Of a DNA stretch of 64,000 nucleotides, positions 42,779 to 55,701 are shown in pieces; positions within the stretch are counted from its first letter, which is position 1; each line of letters starts with the position of its first letter. Under the pieces are notes generated by a model that saw only the letters and a program-made list of their open reading frames with translations, was not told the DNA's origin and made no database searches. The DNA comes from Crocinitomicaceae bacterium (lineage in GTDB: Bacteria > Bacteroidota > Bacteroidia > Flavobacteriales_D > Crocinitomicaceae): NCBI GenBank assembly GCA_029252405.1, contig JAQXBM010000052.1, positions 1,156 through 65,155 on the forward strand. Direction: 5' to 3'. The translations under genes were made by a program, and so were the position numbers.

Positions 42779-43873
42779 TTATTTCGAAAAAACACTCGTC
42801 AATTGATCGAGGACTTTTCCGCCATTTGAGACAGTCACTTCACCGATTTTCTCGGCAATTTTTTCTATGTATTCCATCTCTTTCAATTTGAAAAGCATCT
42901 CGTTTTGATCCATCAACTTCGCTGTATTCATAAGGCTTCGCGTTGCCGCTGTTTCCTCTCTTCGAGCGATGATGTTGGCTTCCGCACTTTTTTGAGCGAC
43001 CAACACCTTGTTCATGATGTCTTTCACTTCACCTGGAAGAACGATATCTCGAATACCTGCTGTCAATACTTCGACGCCCAATTTTGAGCTTCTTTTGCCG
43101 ACGTAATTCAATACGAATTCAGACACTTTTTCTTTCGCTGAAAGCAACTCATCCAAGGTCAATGTTCCCACGAACTCGCGCAATCCCAATTGAATCAAAG
43201 TGTACAATTGCTTCTCGAAGTCTTTAGAATCAAGCAATGCTTTTTGAGCATCTATTACTTTGTAATTCGCTTGGAAATTGATTCGCAATGCTGCTTTGTC
43301 TTTGGTCAACATTTCTTGTCCTGAAAGCTCCAATTGAATCTGACGCATATCGATTTTCAACACCTCTACTGGAGTGATACCCTTCGTGAAGAAGTACAAA
43401 CCTTTCGTCAACGTTCGAATGAATTTACCGTCAAAGAACAGCAAACCTTCTTCACTCGATTCAATTTTGAACTCATACAAGAACTGTTTCAAATACGTAT
43501 TTCGAAGAGCTGATTTTTCAATCAAGTTGGCACTTTCTGGATCATTCATATCAATGACAACAACTTTCAACTCAACAAGACCCTTGAAATAGAAATAACG
43601 CCCTGGTCGAAGTACTTCCGAAAAGTTCTTCCCAACATAGCTCAACGCGATTTCATTGTCTCCAATTTCTATTACTTCAGTCGCATTCTTGAAGTTTTCA
43701 TCCGTTAACATTGCATCAATCATCTCTGGAGCTTGGAACATTTGCGACTTATCGAACGTTGTCAAAGATTCTCTCATCATTAGCCAATGAGAACCTTCCA
43801 TGATCAATCGATTGTAGTCTCCATTTTTTGAGACAATTCCTACTTTACCTACGTTAATTCTAGTTCTTTTCAT
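42779..43873 (-). CDS. SPFH/band-7 (slipin-like) domain protein
   Basis: 364 aa. SPFH-core pattern (..LTKDKAALRINFQANYKV.., ..GVEVLTAGIRDIVLPGEVKDIMNKVLVAQKSAEANIIARREETAATR..). Confidence 0.85.
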   Translation of the reverse strand: MKRTRINVGKVGIVSKNGDYNRLIMEGSHWLMMRESLTTFDKSQMFQAPEMIDAMLTDENFKNATEVIEIGDNEIALSYVGKNFSEVLRPGRYFYFKGLVELKVVVIDMNDPESANLIEKSALRNTYLKQFLYEFKIESSEEGLLFFDGKFIRTLTKGLYFFTKGITPVEVLKIDMRQIQLELSGQEMLTKDKAALRINFQANYKVIDAQKALLDSKDFEKQLYTLIQLGLREFVGTLTLDELLSAKEKVSEFVLNYVGKRSSKLGVEVLTAGIRDIVLPGEVKDIMNKVLVAQKSAEANIIARREETAATRSLMNTAKLMDQNEMLFKLKEMEYIEKIAEKIGEVTVSNGGKVLDQLTSVFSK

Positions 43874-43896
43874 TTTACTTCATTTTTACTTCAAAT

Positions 43897-43920
43897 TTCT
43901 TGATGCTCTCGCATCAGCTT
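43897..43920 (-). promoter_or_regulatory. conserved 5-prime-leader hairpin motif (copy 2, upstream of the SPFH gene)
   Basis: Minus-strand RNA reads AAGCTGATGC-GAGA-GCATCAAGAA, 24 nt upstream of the ATG. Confidence 0.4.
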
Positions 43921-44222
43921 ATTTTCTGAGTTTTACTTATTAATTACTGTTTTTATAGAAAGGAATGCAAAGCGATCTCCTTCCACCATCGGATATGGAA
44001 TTGAGTAAGGACGTTTGCGAGTTGTTTTCGTTCGTCTTTCTACTCGTAGTTGAGCAAAAATTGGAAGTTCAAAGAACAAGCATTCATCGAAACGGTATCC
44101 TTCATTATCGGATGATTTTGGGATGAGTTTTACTGCTTTTTGCAGCTGAATCGAAAGGCGCTATTCGCCGCTCTTAAGACTCAAACTCTGATCCACTTTG
44201 CACTCCTAGCTTGACGTTTTTT

Positions 44223-52374: not shown

Positions 52375-52421
52375 TTTACATTATTTAAGGGGCGCGAACC
52401 CATTTTCGCACCCCTGATTCA

Positions 52422-53807
52422 TTATTCTAAACCTTGCTTCTTTCTTCGTCGTTTCATCCAAGGTGCATTCTTTCGAACATCACCAGCCATGATGCAACCG
52501 TAAGGCATCACCTCATCGATTACTGTTCCCAAACCGTATTCATCCATTTGGTTTCTTACGGTTTCGGCCGTTTTGTAGGCGCTTGGTAATTCGGTGACAT
52601 CGATTTCATTTGAGTAGAATCGAACATCCAATCCTGCGGTTTCTTCGGCGAATACTTCTTCATTCGTTCGACCTTGTTTCGATTTTCTGTGTTGTGTTCG
52701 ACTCATGTTTCTACCTGCTCCGTGTGGTGCAAATCCCAAGTTTCCTTCGGTTGTAGCACCCTCAACGATTAGAACGGGCTCAGCCATATTCAAAGGAATC
52801 AATCGTGGACCTGTGATGTCAGGCATGAACTTCGCGTCCAATGGTGTTGCACCTTTCGCGTGGTAGAACAAATCTCCATCCTTGAATACGAAGTTGTGTT
52901 CATTCCAGAATCGGTTTTCCTTTTCGATTTCCAACTTCTCAAGAACTGTATCGTGCAACACTTCATGGTTCAATTTTGTCCACTTTCTGATGATCTGCAA
53001 AGCTTCCCAGTACGATTTACCCTCTTCAGTATCGAAAGGAATCCACGCGTTTTGTTTCAAAGTTTGTGGCGACAATTCTTTTCTGAATCGTTCGGCTACT
53101 TTCATTCCTTTGGAGAACAAGTTTGCCCCAAAACCTCTACTTCCATGATGCGTAATCATCATTGTGTTGCCTGTTTTCTTGGATTTACCAACGAACAAGA
53201 AGTGGTTTCCATCACCCTGCGTTCCCAAATGAGATCTTGCTGCTGAAATGCATTTTTGATCGTTCAAAAAGTAGTTCGCTTCAATCTCAGCCAACAAATC
53301 CATAGGAAATCTGAACTGTGAGGCTCTATCTCTTCCGCCAGGACCGAAATGCGTGTTTTCGTGCGCTGCATCCAATACTGCTTTCGGATCTGTTTTACCA
53401 AAATCTGTCAACATCACTGAGCAACAGATATCTGCACTGTGCATTCCCGGGTGAATCGCATTCTTTGCAACTGCAACACCTCCAACTGGAATTGTTCCTG
53501 TTGATCCAGTTGGACAAGCATCAGGCATGACCGCTCCATTCACTAGCGTTGGCGTTTTCATCAACTCGGCCATAGTATCAATTACTTTCGACACATTGTC
53601 TTCTTCCAATTCACTTTCTGGACGAATGTTGATTTGAAAATGTATTGGTTCCGCATTCAATTCAATTTCAGGAGGTGACTTGAATTGCTCCAAGTAGGCA
53701 TCTAATTCAGGTCCTTCCAACTCGTTCGTGTTTATATGTTCGATGGCTTCTTTAAACCATTTCCCTGGTTTAAATCCCAATTCGATTAATGTGTTTCCGT
53801 TTGTCAT
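52422..53807 (-). CDS. rtcB: RNA ligase RtcB, second divergent paralogue
   Basis: [48 protein letters not shown] and FAPHGAGR. Only distantly similar to the rtcB at 48671..50062. Confidence 0.9.
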
Positions 53808-53964
53808 AACATTTGTTTTAATTTACTCCGCCAACCGGATTGTCGGCGGAGTTGACTGCTACTAAATATTCAATAGGAATAATTGAACAAAACAAAGGTT
53901 TCAATCAAGTGCGCAATTATTTTGCGTAGTTGAAAATCAAAGTGTATTTTTTCAGAAAAAAATC

Positions 53965-55701
53965 ATGGCGCAGAACAAAAATGCCCTCATTCGCTACCGC
54001 ACAATCGATAAGTGTTTACAAAACTCATATCGAACTTGGACGCTCAATGACTTGATTGAGGCCTGTTCTGATGCACTTTACGAGTATGAGGGGCGTGATG
54101 TGAACGTCAGCAAACGAACCATACAACTAGACATTCAACTGATGCGGAGTGACAAGCTGGGATACAATGCTCCTATTGAAGTTTACGATAAAAAGTTCTA
54201 TCGCTACGCAGATGAAGATTACTCCATCACGGAGATTCCTCTGAATGAAACCGACATGAACGTGCTCTCTGAAACCGTCGAGATGTTGAAGCAATTCAAG
54301 GATTTCTCGCTTTTTTCAGAATTGGGAGGCATCATCCAGCGCTTGGAAGACAAAATCTACACGGAAAAAACAGATCAGCCTTCCATCATTCATTTGGACA
54401 AAAATGAACACTTGCGCGGGCTGGAACATTTGGATATTCTCTATCAGGCGATTCTAAAAAAAATGGTGCTGAAACTCGGGTATCGGTCTTTCAAGGCGAG
54501 GTCGGCACAAGAATTCGATTTTCACCCTTTCATCTTAAAAGAATTCAACAACCGATGGTTTTTAGTTGGTAAGAAGAAAGCGTCAAGTAGTGTGATGACA
54601 TTGGCGCTGGATCGAATTCTCTCCATCGATTTCAACACCAAAATAGATTACATCGACGAAGAATTTGACGGTGATTCATTCTATGAAAACACAATCGGTG
54701 TTACGGTTATGGGAGAACAGCACATTCAGAAAGTTGTGCTGAAGGTTAAACGCCCTCACTCTCCGTATGTTTTAACGAAGCCCCTTCACCATTCTCAGCT
54801 CTTGATAAAGGAATTGGGAAATGGCGCCATCATGATTGAATTAAACGTTCACCACAATTTCGAGCTAGAGCGAATTATACTTGGATTTGGCGATGGTATC
54901 CAAGTTGTTGAGCCCGCTACTCTGCGACACAGTGTGCTCGCACGTTTGCAAAACGGGGCTGACTTATACCGAACGGAAATGAGTGAGGCTGGATTGAAAA
55001 AAGCCAAACGAAACTTACGTCAGCGTGGGCACAGCATCTTGAATGACATCTACACGCAGCGTGAAGTCAAGAAAATGCTCAATATTCTCAAGAAGTACTT
55101 TGACGGTTCTGATGAGCCCACTTATGGAAAACGGCGTCTTTTAAAGGATATTCCGTCCTTGGAACCGCTTTTATTGAATGAAAACCTGCTGGGAATTGTT
55201 CGATTCATAGATCCCGAAGCATTTTTGACTAAGGCTATCTATTTTGATAAACCCCAAACTCAGAATTGGGCTGTTGCTTGGCACCAAGACGTTCCCATCA
55301 ATGTTGAAGAAAAAATTCCAACGGAGGGATACACTTCTTGGACTTTGAAGAAAGGAATAAATAGTGTCTGCCCTCCTGAAGATGTGCTTCACAACGTTTT
55401 TACCTTGCGCATCCACCTTGATGATACGAACACGCTGAATGGAGCCTTAAAGGTTATTCCTGGATCACACAAACAGCGTTTCTCGGATAAAGAAATGAAC
55501 ACAATTACGAGCAATTCGAATCCGAGAATATGTGCAATTGAGTCGGGAGGTGTACACTTAATGAAACCTTTGATTTTACACTCTTCCCCGAGATCAACAA
55601 CCCAGAAAAAACGACGTGTAATTCATTTGGAATTTAGTTCGATGGAGTTAGCAGGCGAGTTAGACTGGTTAGAGCGAATGCAACTACCAACATCTACTTG
55701 A
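53965..55701 (+). CDS. HTH-WYL-WCX transcriptional regulator fused to a PhyH-type Fe(II)/2-oxoglutarate dioxygenase domain
   Basis: N-terminus: ..SKRTIQLDIQLMR.. (HTH), FHPFILKEFNNRWFLVG (WYL), FGDGIQVVEPATLR (WCX). C-terminal about 220 aa: WHQDVP (HxD), GALKVIPGSH, LILHSSPRS, RRVIHLEF. Divergent from rtcB. Confidence 0.75.
   Translation: MAQNKNALIRYRTIDKCLQNSYRTWTLNDLIEACSDALYEYEGRDVNVSKRTIQLDIQLMRSDKLGYNAPIEVYDKKFYRYADEDYSITEIPLNETDMNVLSETVEMLKQFKDFSLFSELGGIIQRLEDKIYTEKTDQPSIIHLDKNEHLRGLEHLDILYQAILKKMVLKLGYRSFKARSAQEFDFHPFILKEFNNRWFLVGKKKASSSVMTLALDRILSIDFNTKIDYIDEEFDGDSFYENTIGVTVMGEQHIQKVVLKVKRPHSPYVLTKPLHHSQLLIKELGNGAIMIELNVHHNFELERIILGFGDGIQVVEPATLRHSVLARLQNGADLYRTEMSEAGLKKAKRNLRQRGHSILNDIYTQREVKKMLNILKKYFDGSDEPTYGKRRLLKDIPSLEPLLLNENLLGIVRFIDPEAFLTKAIYFDKPQTQNWAVAWHQDVPINVEEKIPTEGYTSWTLKKGINSVCPPEDVLHNVFTLRIHLDDTNTLNGALKVIPGSHKQRFSDKEMNTITSNSNPRICAIESGGVHLMKPLILHSSPRSTTQKKRRVIHLEFSSMELAGELDWLERMQLPTST

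Follow-up and report, generated by a model that had tools for sequence, protein, structure and literature searches.

We analyzed a 64,000-nucleotide (nt) window from a Crocinitomicaceae bacterium (GCA_029252405.1, contig JAQXBM010000052.1, positions 1,156-65,155 of the forward strand), within which an island of approximately 13 kb (42779-55701, nearly all on the minus strand) had been read from its letters as a composite RNA-repair locus. The island encodes an SPFH/Band-7 protein, two RtcB ligases, the release-factor-H paralogue PrfH and a WYL-PhyH fusion protein, together with small conserved open reading frames (ORFs), an array of tRNA-like genes and a pair of permuted tRNA mimics. Scans for ORFs, RNAs and protein families (the latter by hidden Markov models, HMMs) located every element listed in that sequence-only reading at the coordinates it had given, and HMM searches of Pfam and NCBIfam upheld its assignments of SPFH, PrfH, both RtcBs and WYL-PhyH. 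It had also remarked on the lack of Ro/Rsr, RtcA, RtcR and archease, and none of Rsr (TROVE), RtcA, RtcR and archease has a Pfam or NCBIfam match among island ORFs of at least 95 amino acids (aa). Throughout, tRNAs were called with ARAGORN and Rfam, and proteins were searched against Pfam, NCBIfam, PHROGs and PADLOC-DB v2.

Directly upstream of the SPFH gene (42779-43873, minus strand; 364 aa; PF01145 at 107.9 bits, cutoff 23.6), a member of a family with more than 5000 homologues, we found two circularly permuted tRNA mimics arranged in tandem. Module A (44338-44406, minus) scores 73.3 bits with R1, a covariance model built in this analysis, and runs in the order closing stem, variable region, T arm, acceptor hairpin, D arm, closing stem. 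Module B (44250-44338, minus) combines a second permuted mimic (44274-44338; T arm, acceptor hairpin, D arm) with an anticodon-like hairpin, GUAUG-CUCAUAA-CAUAC, at 44250-44266. In both modules the acceptor stem is loop-closed, and the closing stem takes the position of the anticodon stem. At gathering thresholds Rfam yields only tRNA matches in the window; a permissive scan additionally matches the tRNA-like domain of YrlA (RF02553) at 44274-44338 (37.1 bits) and 44342-44402 (32.2 bits), both sub-threshold (gathering score 69) and covering model positions 23-85 only. A weak Rfam 'tRNA' match at 44306-44372 was rejected as an artefact that bridges the two modules, from the D arm of A to the T arm of B.

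For comparison with relatives, we scanned an alignment of the SPFH family against one genome per species, which returned 560 relatives, and studied the top 80 loci together with as much as 10 kb of flanking sequence per side; 64 of these loci have full flanks, and 79 are labelled Bacteroidota and one Rickettsiales. DNA-level conservation is seen 350-650 nt upstream of SPFH, in a stretch that contains paired T-loops left uncalled by ARAGORN, and the module A model finds a match there (threshold at least 46 bits) in 76 of the 80 loci. In an alignment of 47 module A sequences, 94.2% of the cells pair and 18 of the 19 pairs are double-changed, giving a covariation score of 0.674 vs. 0.10-0.19 for slid partners, with none of 500 shuffles scoring as high. 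RNAalifold, run on the 47-locus alignment, returned 34 pairs, 31 of them with compensatory changes, and the T, acceptor and anticodon hairpins of module B covary across these loci. The sequence of the anticodon-like loop of module B differs between loci. Weaker R1 matches within the tRNA arrays turned out to be junctions of adjoining tRNAs and no further mimics. We also observed, in an Aquimarina locus (L049, 9780-9882), a Flavo-1 RNA (RF01705, 54.3 bits, above the gathering score) lying between the mimics and the SPFH start; Rfam found no Flavo-1 RNA in the window.

The rest of the neighborhood recurs along with this unit. RtcB lies within 10 kb of SPFH in 54/80 loci, mostly directly downstream, and 59/80 carry at least one (and up to 25) same-strand tRNAs, with a WYL-PhyH gene beside the locus in 35, PrfH in 9 and the family of a small ORF, ORF106, in 7. 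When only full-flank loci are counted, RtcB is present in 46/64, same-strand tRNAs in 50/64 and either one in 63/64. The two relatives compared most closely are a Fluviicola locus (L001, SPFH 81% identical to that of the window), which keeps rtcB1, prfH, an element described below as cassette 2, tRNA-Gln, tRNA-Leu, the mimics, SPFH and dsbA in synteny, and a close relative (L081, SPFH 89% identical), which has the same island and the same flanking genes. L081 additionally carries a DUF6584 gene and two RlaP genes (PF10127) after rtcB2/ORF219 (9382-12480), RlaP being a ligase-associated nucleotidyltransferase of RNA-repair operons (PMC12776372); at this place the window has a second cassette and a tRNA-Glu gene instead. 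The conservation of the neighborhood that the sequence-only reading proposed to check is thus borne out by the RtcB, tRNA and WYL-PhyH counts and by synteny with L001 and L081. A foreign origin of the island was rejected in view of this synteny and its even GC content.

We next turn to the SPFH protein itself, which is devoid of any transmembrane or hydrophobic segment (maximum KD19 hydropathy 1.08) and for which PHROGs gave nothing beyond a weak 'lipoprotein' match. Its AlphaFold model (pLDDT 78) shows three five-stranded beta units along with an SPFH core and a long helix; the protein has two extra N-terminal beta units. Foldseek aligned the model with stomatin, HflK/C and prohibitin at E ~5e-15, and the full-length model with Major Vault Protein (MVP) over 425-478 columns at E 1e-10 to 3e-8. 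Modelled separately (pLDDT 92), residues 1-175 have no significant match in the PDB (MVP at E 0.04-0.08, TM 0.20), and we therefore do not claim MVP-like repeats for the N-terminus. According to the models, the parallel with the vault, in which an SPFH-like shoulder domain of MVP is followed by a helix and the protein associates with small RNAs, is limited to the SPFH-helix part.

An ordinary slipin that organizes membrane microdomains or modulates a protease in the manner of HflK/C, and that sits beside RNA genes by coincidence, would account for these top structural matches, for the weak NCBIfam matches to HflK and for database names that include 'regulator of protease activity'. We find this scarcely credible given that the protein lacks a membrane segment, that its score with the HflK equivalog (TIGR01933) is 58.4 bits, below the cutoff of 159.4, that no NfeD or FtsH partner gene is found in the island, and that a tRNA mimic precedes SPFH in 76/80 loci and RtcB accompanies it in 54/80.

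Both ligases have an intact set of catalytic residues. RtcB1 (48671-50062, minus; 463 aa; PF01139 at 281.4 bits, cutoff 27) keeps every catalytic residue when aligned to 1UC2/4DWR (motifs MPD, DIGC, GNHF, SHSGSRG, HHNF, SHGAGR), the reference residues in P. horikoshii RtcB being the metal ligands Asp65, Cys98, His203, His234 and His329 and the GMP-accepting His404. Immediately adjoining it, in the order rtcB1 then prfH, is the gene for PrfH (47978-48658, minus; 226 aa), which scores 216.8 bits with TIGR03072 (cutoff 166.65) and 85 bits with the Pfam RF-1 domain, and which has the GGQ motif (SGGQHVN). An RtcB at least 75% identical to RtcB1 adjoins PrfH in seven of the nine PrfH-bearing loci. 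RtcB2 (52422-53807, minus; 461 aa; PF01139 at 131.1 bits, cutoff 27) is of phage type, matching the phage RtcB family phrog_1075 over its full length at 322 bits, and it too retains the catalytic motifs of P. horikoshii RtcB (MPD, DICC, GNHF, THHGSRG, PHGAGR and, by eye, EHNF). A ligase of the RtcB2 type lies directly downstream of SPFH in 10 loci.

The ligases that adjoin SPFH fall into three or more clades. One is PrfH-linked, with no less than 74% identity to RtcB1, another is phage-type, with no less than 70% identity to RtcB2, and a further one, common in Cytophagia-type loci, is 50-58% identical to RtcB1. Similarity to the RtcB of L081 (489 aa) reaches 27 codons past the first start of rtcB2 in the window (53808-53888), as far as the candidate operator described below, so that the gene may have been modelled too long in L081, or else an upstream start has been lost in the window.

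Two further ORFs accompany the ligase genes. ORF219 (51715-52374, minus) is hypothetical, its narrow family numbering 9 homologues (184-207 aa); it has no match in Pfam, NCBIfam, PHROGs or PADLOC, its C-terminus extends into a REP-like repeat, and its homologue in L081 lies between RtcB/DUF6584 and the two RlaP genes. ORF106 (50569-50889, minus), a small conserved hypothetical ORF that is probably 103 aa long with its start at 50880, has 129 homologous clusters of ~105 aa and no match in Pfam, PADLOC or PHROGs; its homologue follows the last array tRNA (Phe) in 7 loci and is 85% identical in L081. PADLOC-DB v2 gave no match for SPFH, both RtcBs, PrfH, ORF106 or ORF219, its only match in the island being the WYL domain, a generic CRISPR-associated signaling module. 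Assignment to a known anti-phage defence system is thus unsupported by the PADLOC and PHROG scans of the component proteins.

Between the repair genes and the mimics lies the array of tRNA-like genes (44638-45661, minus). The 1.5-kb array of tRNA-like modules noted from sequence resolves into six ARAGORN tRNAs, one or two decayed copies and the two tandem permuted mimics. Read along the minus strand, the array consists of tRNA-Ser(GCU) (45574-45661), tRNA-Pro(UGG) (45273-45347), tRNA-Asn(GUU) (45010-45082), a decayed Lys-like copy (44920-44987, seen in the permissive Rfam scan), tRNA-Gln(UUG) (44828-44899), tRNA-Leu(UAG) (44732-44820) and tRNA-Phe(GAA) (44638-44711). A tRNA-Glu(UUC) of array type (50966-51039, minus; Rfam tRNA score 54 bits) stands isolated from the others. 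Rfam confirmed six of these seven ARAGORN tRNAs, missing only Ser, which falls below its threshold, and scored the window tRNAs at 60.9 to 42.6 bits. With six to eight genes, several of them decayed, the window array is short: 19 of the 64 full-flank loci carry 10 or more tRNAs (up to 25). Its order and tRNA types nevertheless match those of related loci, in which we observed the recurrent order Lys, Ser, Ser, Asn, Cys, Tyr, Trp, Asp, Pro, Glu ... Leu, Leu, Arg, Gln, His, Phe, with no Thr and with Gly, Ala and Val rare.

We then set 410 array tRNAs against 26 tRNAs that lie outside the arrays of the same loci. The array tRNAs are peculiar at position 37 in particular, with U37 in 28/31 Asp(GUC) and in 20/24 Glu(UUC), the latter sharing the anticodon loop CUUUCUA with the window tRNA-Glu, which also has U37. 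Array Phe has G37 (21/29) and array Pro has A37 (18/19); array Leu(UAG) mostly has A37, and housekeeping Pro-UGG tRNAs in the same loci are canonical. Array Leu tRNAs (UAG and UAA; L001, L043, L046 and others) are mostly 74-75 nt long and without the long class II variable arm, and in the 89-nt Leu of the window the variable 'arm' is an inserted palindrome. The stems of array tRNAs vary by compensatory change, and the unusual anticodon loops stay fixed. Identity elements such as G-1:C73 in His and G73 in Asp are retained, and tRNAs of intact arrays score 55-67 bits with the Rfam tRNA model, equal to the 61-69 bits of housekeeping tRNAs, although some array species score low, such as the array Pro of L046 (33.7 bits vs. 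67.8 for its housekeeping twin). In L046 an array Pro(UGG) occurs alongside a canonical Pro(UGG), and it is in this one genome that supernumerary status was seen. CCA is encoded in 23% of array tRNAs vs. 1/26 non-array tRNAs. Judged by sequence, then, the array tRNAs are structured, selected and atypical rather than random debris.

We also observed odd anticodons in some arrays, including Tyr-AUA (L018, L052, L058, L070, L073), Ile-UAU (L051, L053, L059, L060, L080) and, in L058 at 9001, UUA ('Stop'), a possible ochre-suppressor-like tRNA. The palindrome CCGATA(G/A)(C/T)TATCGG recurs in the window array (44759-44775, 44922-44935, 45457-45470, 45525-45541); this 14-nt element, CCGATAGCTATCGG, has spread within the array, sits in the variable loop of tRNA-Leu and is found in L001 (~2440-2460) in the region of a small ORF of cassette 2. 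It resembles a very small mobile element, or one prone to recombination. Between Pro and Asn, a non-coding stretch of ~120 nt (45112-45228, minus) with a terminator-like hairpin inside (45146-45168) is conserved in L081 (13292-13615), where it lies between the homologues of ORF106 and of a cassette ORF, sORF1; it may be an unrecognized RNA element.

These features bear on two alternative accounts of the tRNAs. According to the first, the array is a long array that was acquired horizontally and is now decaying, without functional link to the repair genes, perhaps having been attracted by recombination to tRNA-like sequences. Long arrays are indeed mobile and often cryptic (PMC8421152), array content varies among the window, L001 and L081, several copies in the window have degenerated, a short palindrome has spread into the array, a GIY-YIG endonuclease gene adjoins the island, and the CCA end is encoded more often than in non-array tRNAs. 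We rate this account as quite improbable: in 59/80 loci, from Flavobacteriales to Cytophagales and others, arrays occupy the same site, flanked by the repair genes and by the mimic-SPFH unit, on the same strand and with a conserved gene order; unusual anticodon loops are conserved while stems covary; and GC content is even throughout the island, with no integrase or transposase among the ORFs inside it.

The second account leaves the repair proteins in the roles that we propose for them below and takes the tRNA-like RNAs out of translation, as decoys or sponges of anticodon nucleases, as cofactors or activators of RtcB, or as a damage sensor whose cleavage products signal to the WYL protein. 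The pyrimidine at position 37 of Asp and Glu, the class-I-sized Leu and the odd anticodons (Tyr-AUA, Ile-UAU, UUA), all unusual in tRNAs that decode, would fit such a role. So would the mimics, whose loop-closed acceptor end cannot be aminoacylated, and the free variation between loci of the anticodon-like loop in module B. Precedents include the sponge idea raised for the Anabaena array (PMC8421152) and the activation of RtcR by tRNA halves in Salmonella (PMC7790460). Against this stand the identity elements kept by array tRNAs (His G-1:C73, Asp G73 and its GUC anticodon), their full cloverleaves and housekeeping-level Rfam scores, and the finding that 23/26 Anabaena array tRNAs are aminoacylated in vivo (PMC8421152). 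We judge this second account unlikely.

Divergent from rtcB2, the plus strand encodes a putative regulator of 578 aa (53965-55701), a WYL-WCX-PhyH fusion with Pfam matches to WYL (PF13280, 42.9 bits), WCX (PF25583, 45.2 bits) and PhyH (PF05721, 41.3 bits vs. a cutoff of 22, covering profile positions 98-213 only), and with scores of 82.9 and 52.8 bits against PADLOC WYL models. Its PhyH part, in which the His-x-Asp...His motifs can be recognized by eye as HQD...H(SS)...R (WHQD, LHSS), is a predicted dioxygenase. The palindrome TACGCAATCTTTTTGCGTA (TACGCAA-N5-TTGCGTA) has its sole perfect match in the window at 44595-44613, upstream of the mimics, and conservation of the DNA with L001 starts right at this palindrome (44614). 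A copy with one mismatch, TGCGCAATTATTTTGCGTA, lies at 53910-53928 in the divergent promoter region of rtcB2 and WYL, and we found no third close match to ACGCAA-N5-TTGCGT in the 64-kb window. Across 1.5 Mb of related loci, 54 of 59 sites fall at three fixed positions. In 20/34 loci the site precedes the WYL start by less than 160 nt (about 40 nt), in 24/78 it precedes SPFH by 500-1400 nt, and in 10 it lies just downstream of SPFH, ahead of RtcB. The two palindromes of the window occupy the before-WYL and before-ncRNA-SPFH positions seen in relatives (ncRNA, non-coding RNA). This pattern suggests that the WYL protein would act through the palindrome as its operator, and that a single regulon would comprise rtcB2 and the mimic-SPFH unit.

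Our preferred interpretation, which we hold with modest confidence, is that the island serves as a regulated kit that repairs and rescues the translation apparatus, made up of four modules under one regulator. Our analysis shows the identities of the proteins and their intact catalytic residues, the conserved neighborhood, the covarying structure of the mimic, the oddities of the tRNAs and the fixed positions of the palindrome; the biochemical activities, the ribonucleoprotein, the signal that induces the system and what the tRNAs do in the following scheme are what we infer. PrfH would recognize ribosomes stalled by a cut in the decoding centre of 16S rRNA, and RtcB1 would reseal the break, with its 2',3'-cyclic-phosphate and 5'-OH ends, by analogy with RtcB2-PrfH of E. 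coli. RtcB2, with ORF219 (and with DUF6584 and RlaP in relatives), would reseal cleaved tRNAs. A soluble, oligomeric SPFH protein and the tandem mimic leader RNA may form a ribonucleoprotein that recruits or organizes RtcB2 and tRNA-handling enzymes, in parallel to Rsr-YrlA of Salmonella. The variant tRNAs might replace isoacceptors destroyed by anticodon nucleases, an idea taken from phage tRNAs and the Anabaena array, and the changes in their anticodon loops (U37 in Asp and Glu, G37 in Phe) could protect them from efficient cleavage by nucleases. Finally, the WYL-WCX-PhyH protein would bind ACGCAA-N5-TTGCGT at the rtcB2/WYL and SPFH promoters and let go on a damage signal. A bolder version, which is speculative and in our view rather unlikely, has the soluble SPFH protein form a ring or cage around the tandem mimics that docks RtcB, as a bacterial counterpart of Ro-Y RNA and the vault; the array would then supply 'nuclease-proof' shadow tRNAs (U37 Asp and Glu, G37 Phe, short Leu) that sustain translation while tRNA and rRNA are resealed, switched on by the WYL-dioxygenase protein as a sensor of RNA damage.

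Several observations weigh against the preferred interpretation. We found no helix-turn-helix domain in the WYL-PhyH protein at E <=0.01 (Pfam). Co-regulation of the tRNAs is unproven, because strong terminators lie directly upstream of the array and of tRNA-Glu and no palindrome precedes the arrays in related loci. RtcB1 scores 154.7 bits with the NCBIfam model of PrfH-associated RtcB (TIGR03073, 'release_rtcB'), below the cutoff of 271.8. The window array copies are at the decayed end of the family range, with non-canonical T-loops in Ser and Asn (the former being also the one below the Rfam threshold) and two acceptor-stem mismatches in Gln. The closest relatives differ in tRNA content (seven in the window, Gln and Leu in L001, Phe and Pro in L081), which suggests weak selection on individual tRNAs. 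A37 is reported as an identity element for E. coli GluRS, and a U37 tRNA-Glu may thus not be chargeable. Since the 80 loci were picked by SPFH similarity, our counts describe this SPFH family only.

The sequence-only reading had been unable to match the locus to any described system, and here our comparison goes the other way: the RtcB/Band-7/b7a-tRNA system, RtcB-PrfH pairs, the Anabaena array regulon and the SPFH gene inside the rtc locus of P. aeruginosa (PMC13086221) between them cover it. The closest counterpart is the system of RtcB, Band-7 and tRNA-like RNA ('b7a-tRNA') of Burroughs & Aravind 2016, as quoted in bioRxiv 10.1101/312249, which also states that YrlA is sometimes found beside Band-7 and that b7a-tRNA is without experimental validation. 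Like that system, the island has RtcB, a Band-7 protein and a neighboring tRNA-like ncRNA, with RlaP in L081. As seen through this citing description, the counterpart of b7a-tRNA could be the array cloverleaves, the permuted mimics or both, and the second RtcB with PrfH, the multi-tRNA array, the WYL-PhyH regulator and the two cassettes go beyond the quoted description. The core of RtcB, Band-7 and tRNA-like RNA is, on the same second-hand account, already predicted by comparative genomics (2016), and for a specialist who knows that survey we expect little surprise. The tandem mimics, the position-37 changes, the short Leu tRNAs and the WYL-PhyH palindrome regulon may be undescribed; we did not find these features, nor the variable anticodon-like loop of the permuted mimic, in the literature examined, where the 2016 survey is represented second-hand, and we do not claim them as new.

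The other systems resemble the island in part. In the rsr-yrlBA-rtcBA operon of Salmonella, RtcB is likewise encoded with an RNA that has a tRNA-mimic core (T arm, closed acceptor stem, D arm), whereas the island lacks Rsr, RtcA and RtcR, its YrlA matches stay at 32-37 bits vs. a gathering score of 69, and its mimics are without the Ro-binding helix (model positions 1-22 and 86-114); Ro as scaffold and the sigma-54 activator RtcR in Salmonella contrast with SPFH and a WYL-type regulator here. RtcB2-PrfH of E. coli repairs the 16S rRNA of ribosomes cut by colicin E3 (PMC9223846, PMC13166195). The island pair is alike in gene order, in its equivalog-level PrfH and in the intact catalytic residues of RtcB1, and different in the sub-cutoff TIGR03073 score and in being embedded in a larger island. 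In Anabaena PCC 7120, a 26-gene tRNA array, rtcB and an operon of a hypothetical gene plus a slipin are repressed by TrcR, and this regulon is induced by ribosome-targeting antibiotics (PMC8421152, PMC10272220). Supernumerary tRNAs are thus linked with rtcB and a slipin in both cases, there by co-regulation and here by physical clustering; the Anabaena genes are scattered and under a ribbon-helix-helix repressor acting on direct repeats, unlike the clustered island with its WYL-PhyH protein and inverted repeat, and the window array is short (7-8 genes) compared with the long Anabaena array. Phage tRNA arrays, too, have anticodon loops that differ from the host set and an RNA ligase nearby, and RtcB2 is of phage type, whereas the island is chromosomal, syntenic among relatives and outside a prophage. 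Phage tRNAs with anticodon-loop changes have been predicted to escape tRNases, and the searched passages of that source (PMC10264068) do not mention U37 in Asp or Glu.

Many bacteria have RtcB, but what it acts on in nature, and with which cofactors, is poorly defined, and little is settled about what bacterial tRNA mimics (Y RNAs, b7a-tRNA) or supernumerary tRNA arrays do. The island family unites two ligase types, PrfH, SPFH, a covarying mimic, variant tRNAs and a regulator with a recognizable operator in ~13 kb. It also occurs in cultured Aquimarina, Winogradskyella, Zobellia, Tenacibaculum, Fulvivirga and Roseivirga, and a compact island in cultured genera therefore makes the 2016 computational prediction directly testable. 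Our analysis supplies hypotheses about the set of co-regulated promoters, the RNA partner of SPFH and a possible resistance of U37 tRNAs to anticodon nucleases.

Of the composite RNA-repair island proposed from sequence, the repair reading holds, while the plus-strand glycoside hydrolase (GH) gene, a duplicated rtcB1 leader and the REP palindromes are lineage-specific noise and not parts of the system. The GH113 gene (46565-47929, plus; PF22612 at 71.9 bits), whose product has a hydrophobic, signal-peptide-like N-terminus, is missing at the corresponding place of the syntenic loci L001 and L081 and is therefore an insertion, as had been suspected: a passenger outside the system. Repeat analysis likewise recovered the duplicated leader, the palindromic repeat and the second cassette copy of the sequence-only reading. 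The leader duplication (50046-50342, minus) is a tandem 137-nt unit, 91-94% identical, that makes overlapping upstream ORFs and is not present in L001; Tandem Repeats Finder reported nothing in the island and missed it. The REP-like hairpin (50354-50430) has perfect 26-nt arms, and matches to the core of this element, GGCTCCGCTCACCCCTC, number seven within 10 kb vs. zero expected by chance. A repeat search found further copies or half-copies at 42232-42248, 42702-42776, 47930-47958 and 51696-51760. The copies lie at the 3' ends of transcription units, one of them forming the C-terminal extension of ORF219, and are also found in L001.

The two cassettes are paralogous over ~280 nt plus the final terminator. 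Cassette 1 spans 51055-51540 (minus; terminators 51522-51499 and 51110-51086), and cassette 2 spans 45840-46330 (minus; terminators 46312-46289 and 45888-45865), directly upstream of the tRNA array. Their common layout comprises a terminator, a CAATTG-rich conserved region, a promoter-like TTTG-N22-TATTTGCAC, a small ORF and a terminator. A sigma-70 promoter scan gave 23 sites vs. 23.5 expected, with a consensus that differs from the one used by Bacteroidota. The small ORF of cassette 1, sORF1 (51136-51255, minus; 39 aa), shares 59% identity with an L081 gene of 39 aa, and that of cassette 2, sORF2 (45912-46043, minus; 43 aa), has a 42-aa counterpart there with 49% aa identity; the two are unrelated to each other. 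L001 likewise has cassette 2, 76% identical in nucleotides, and keeps its ORF. That ORFs of equal length are kept in L081 (both) and in L001 (sORF2) speaks against a non-coding reading, and we regard the two as possibly coding. Finally, we observed the GIY-YIG endonuclease gene (42397-42699, plus) between SPFH and dsbA, a place where L001 and L081 lack it, which makes it an insertion relative to both, and a position that recalls the homing endonuclease beside cyanobacterial tRNA arrays.

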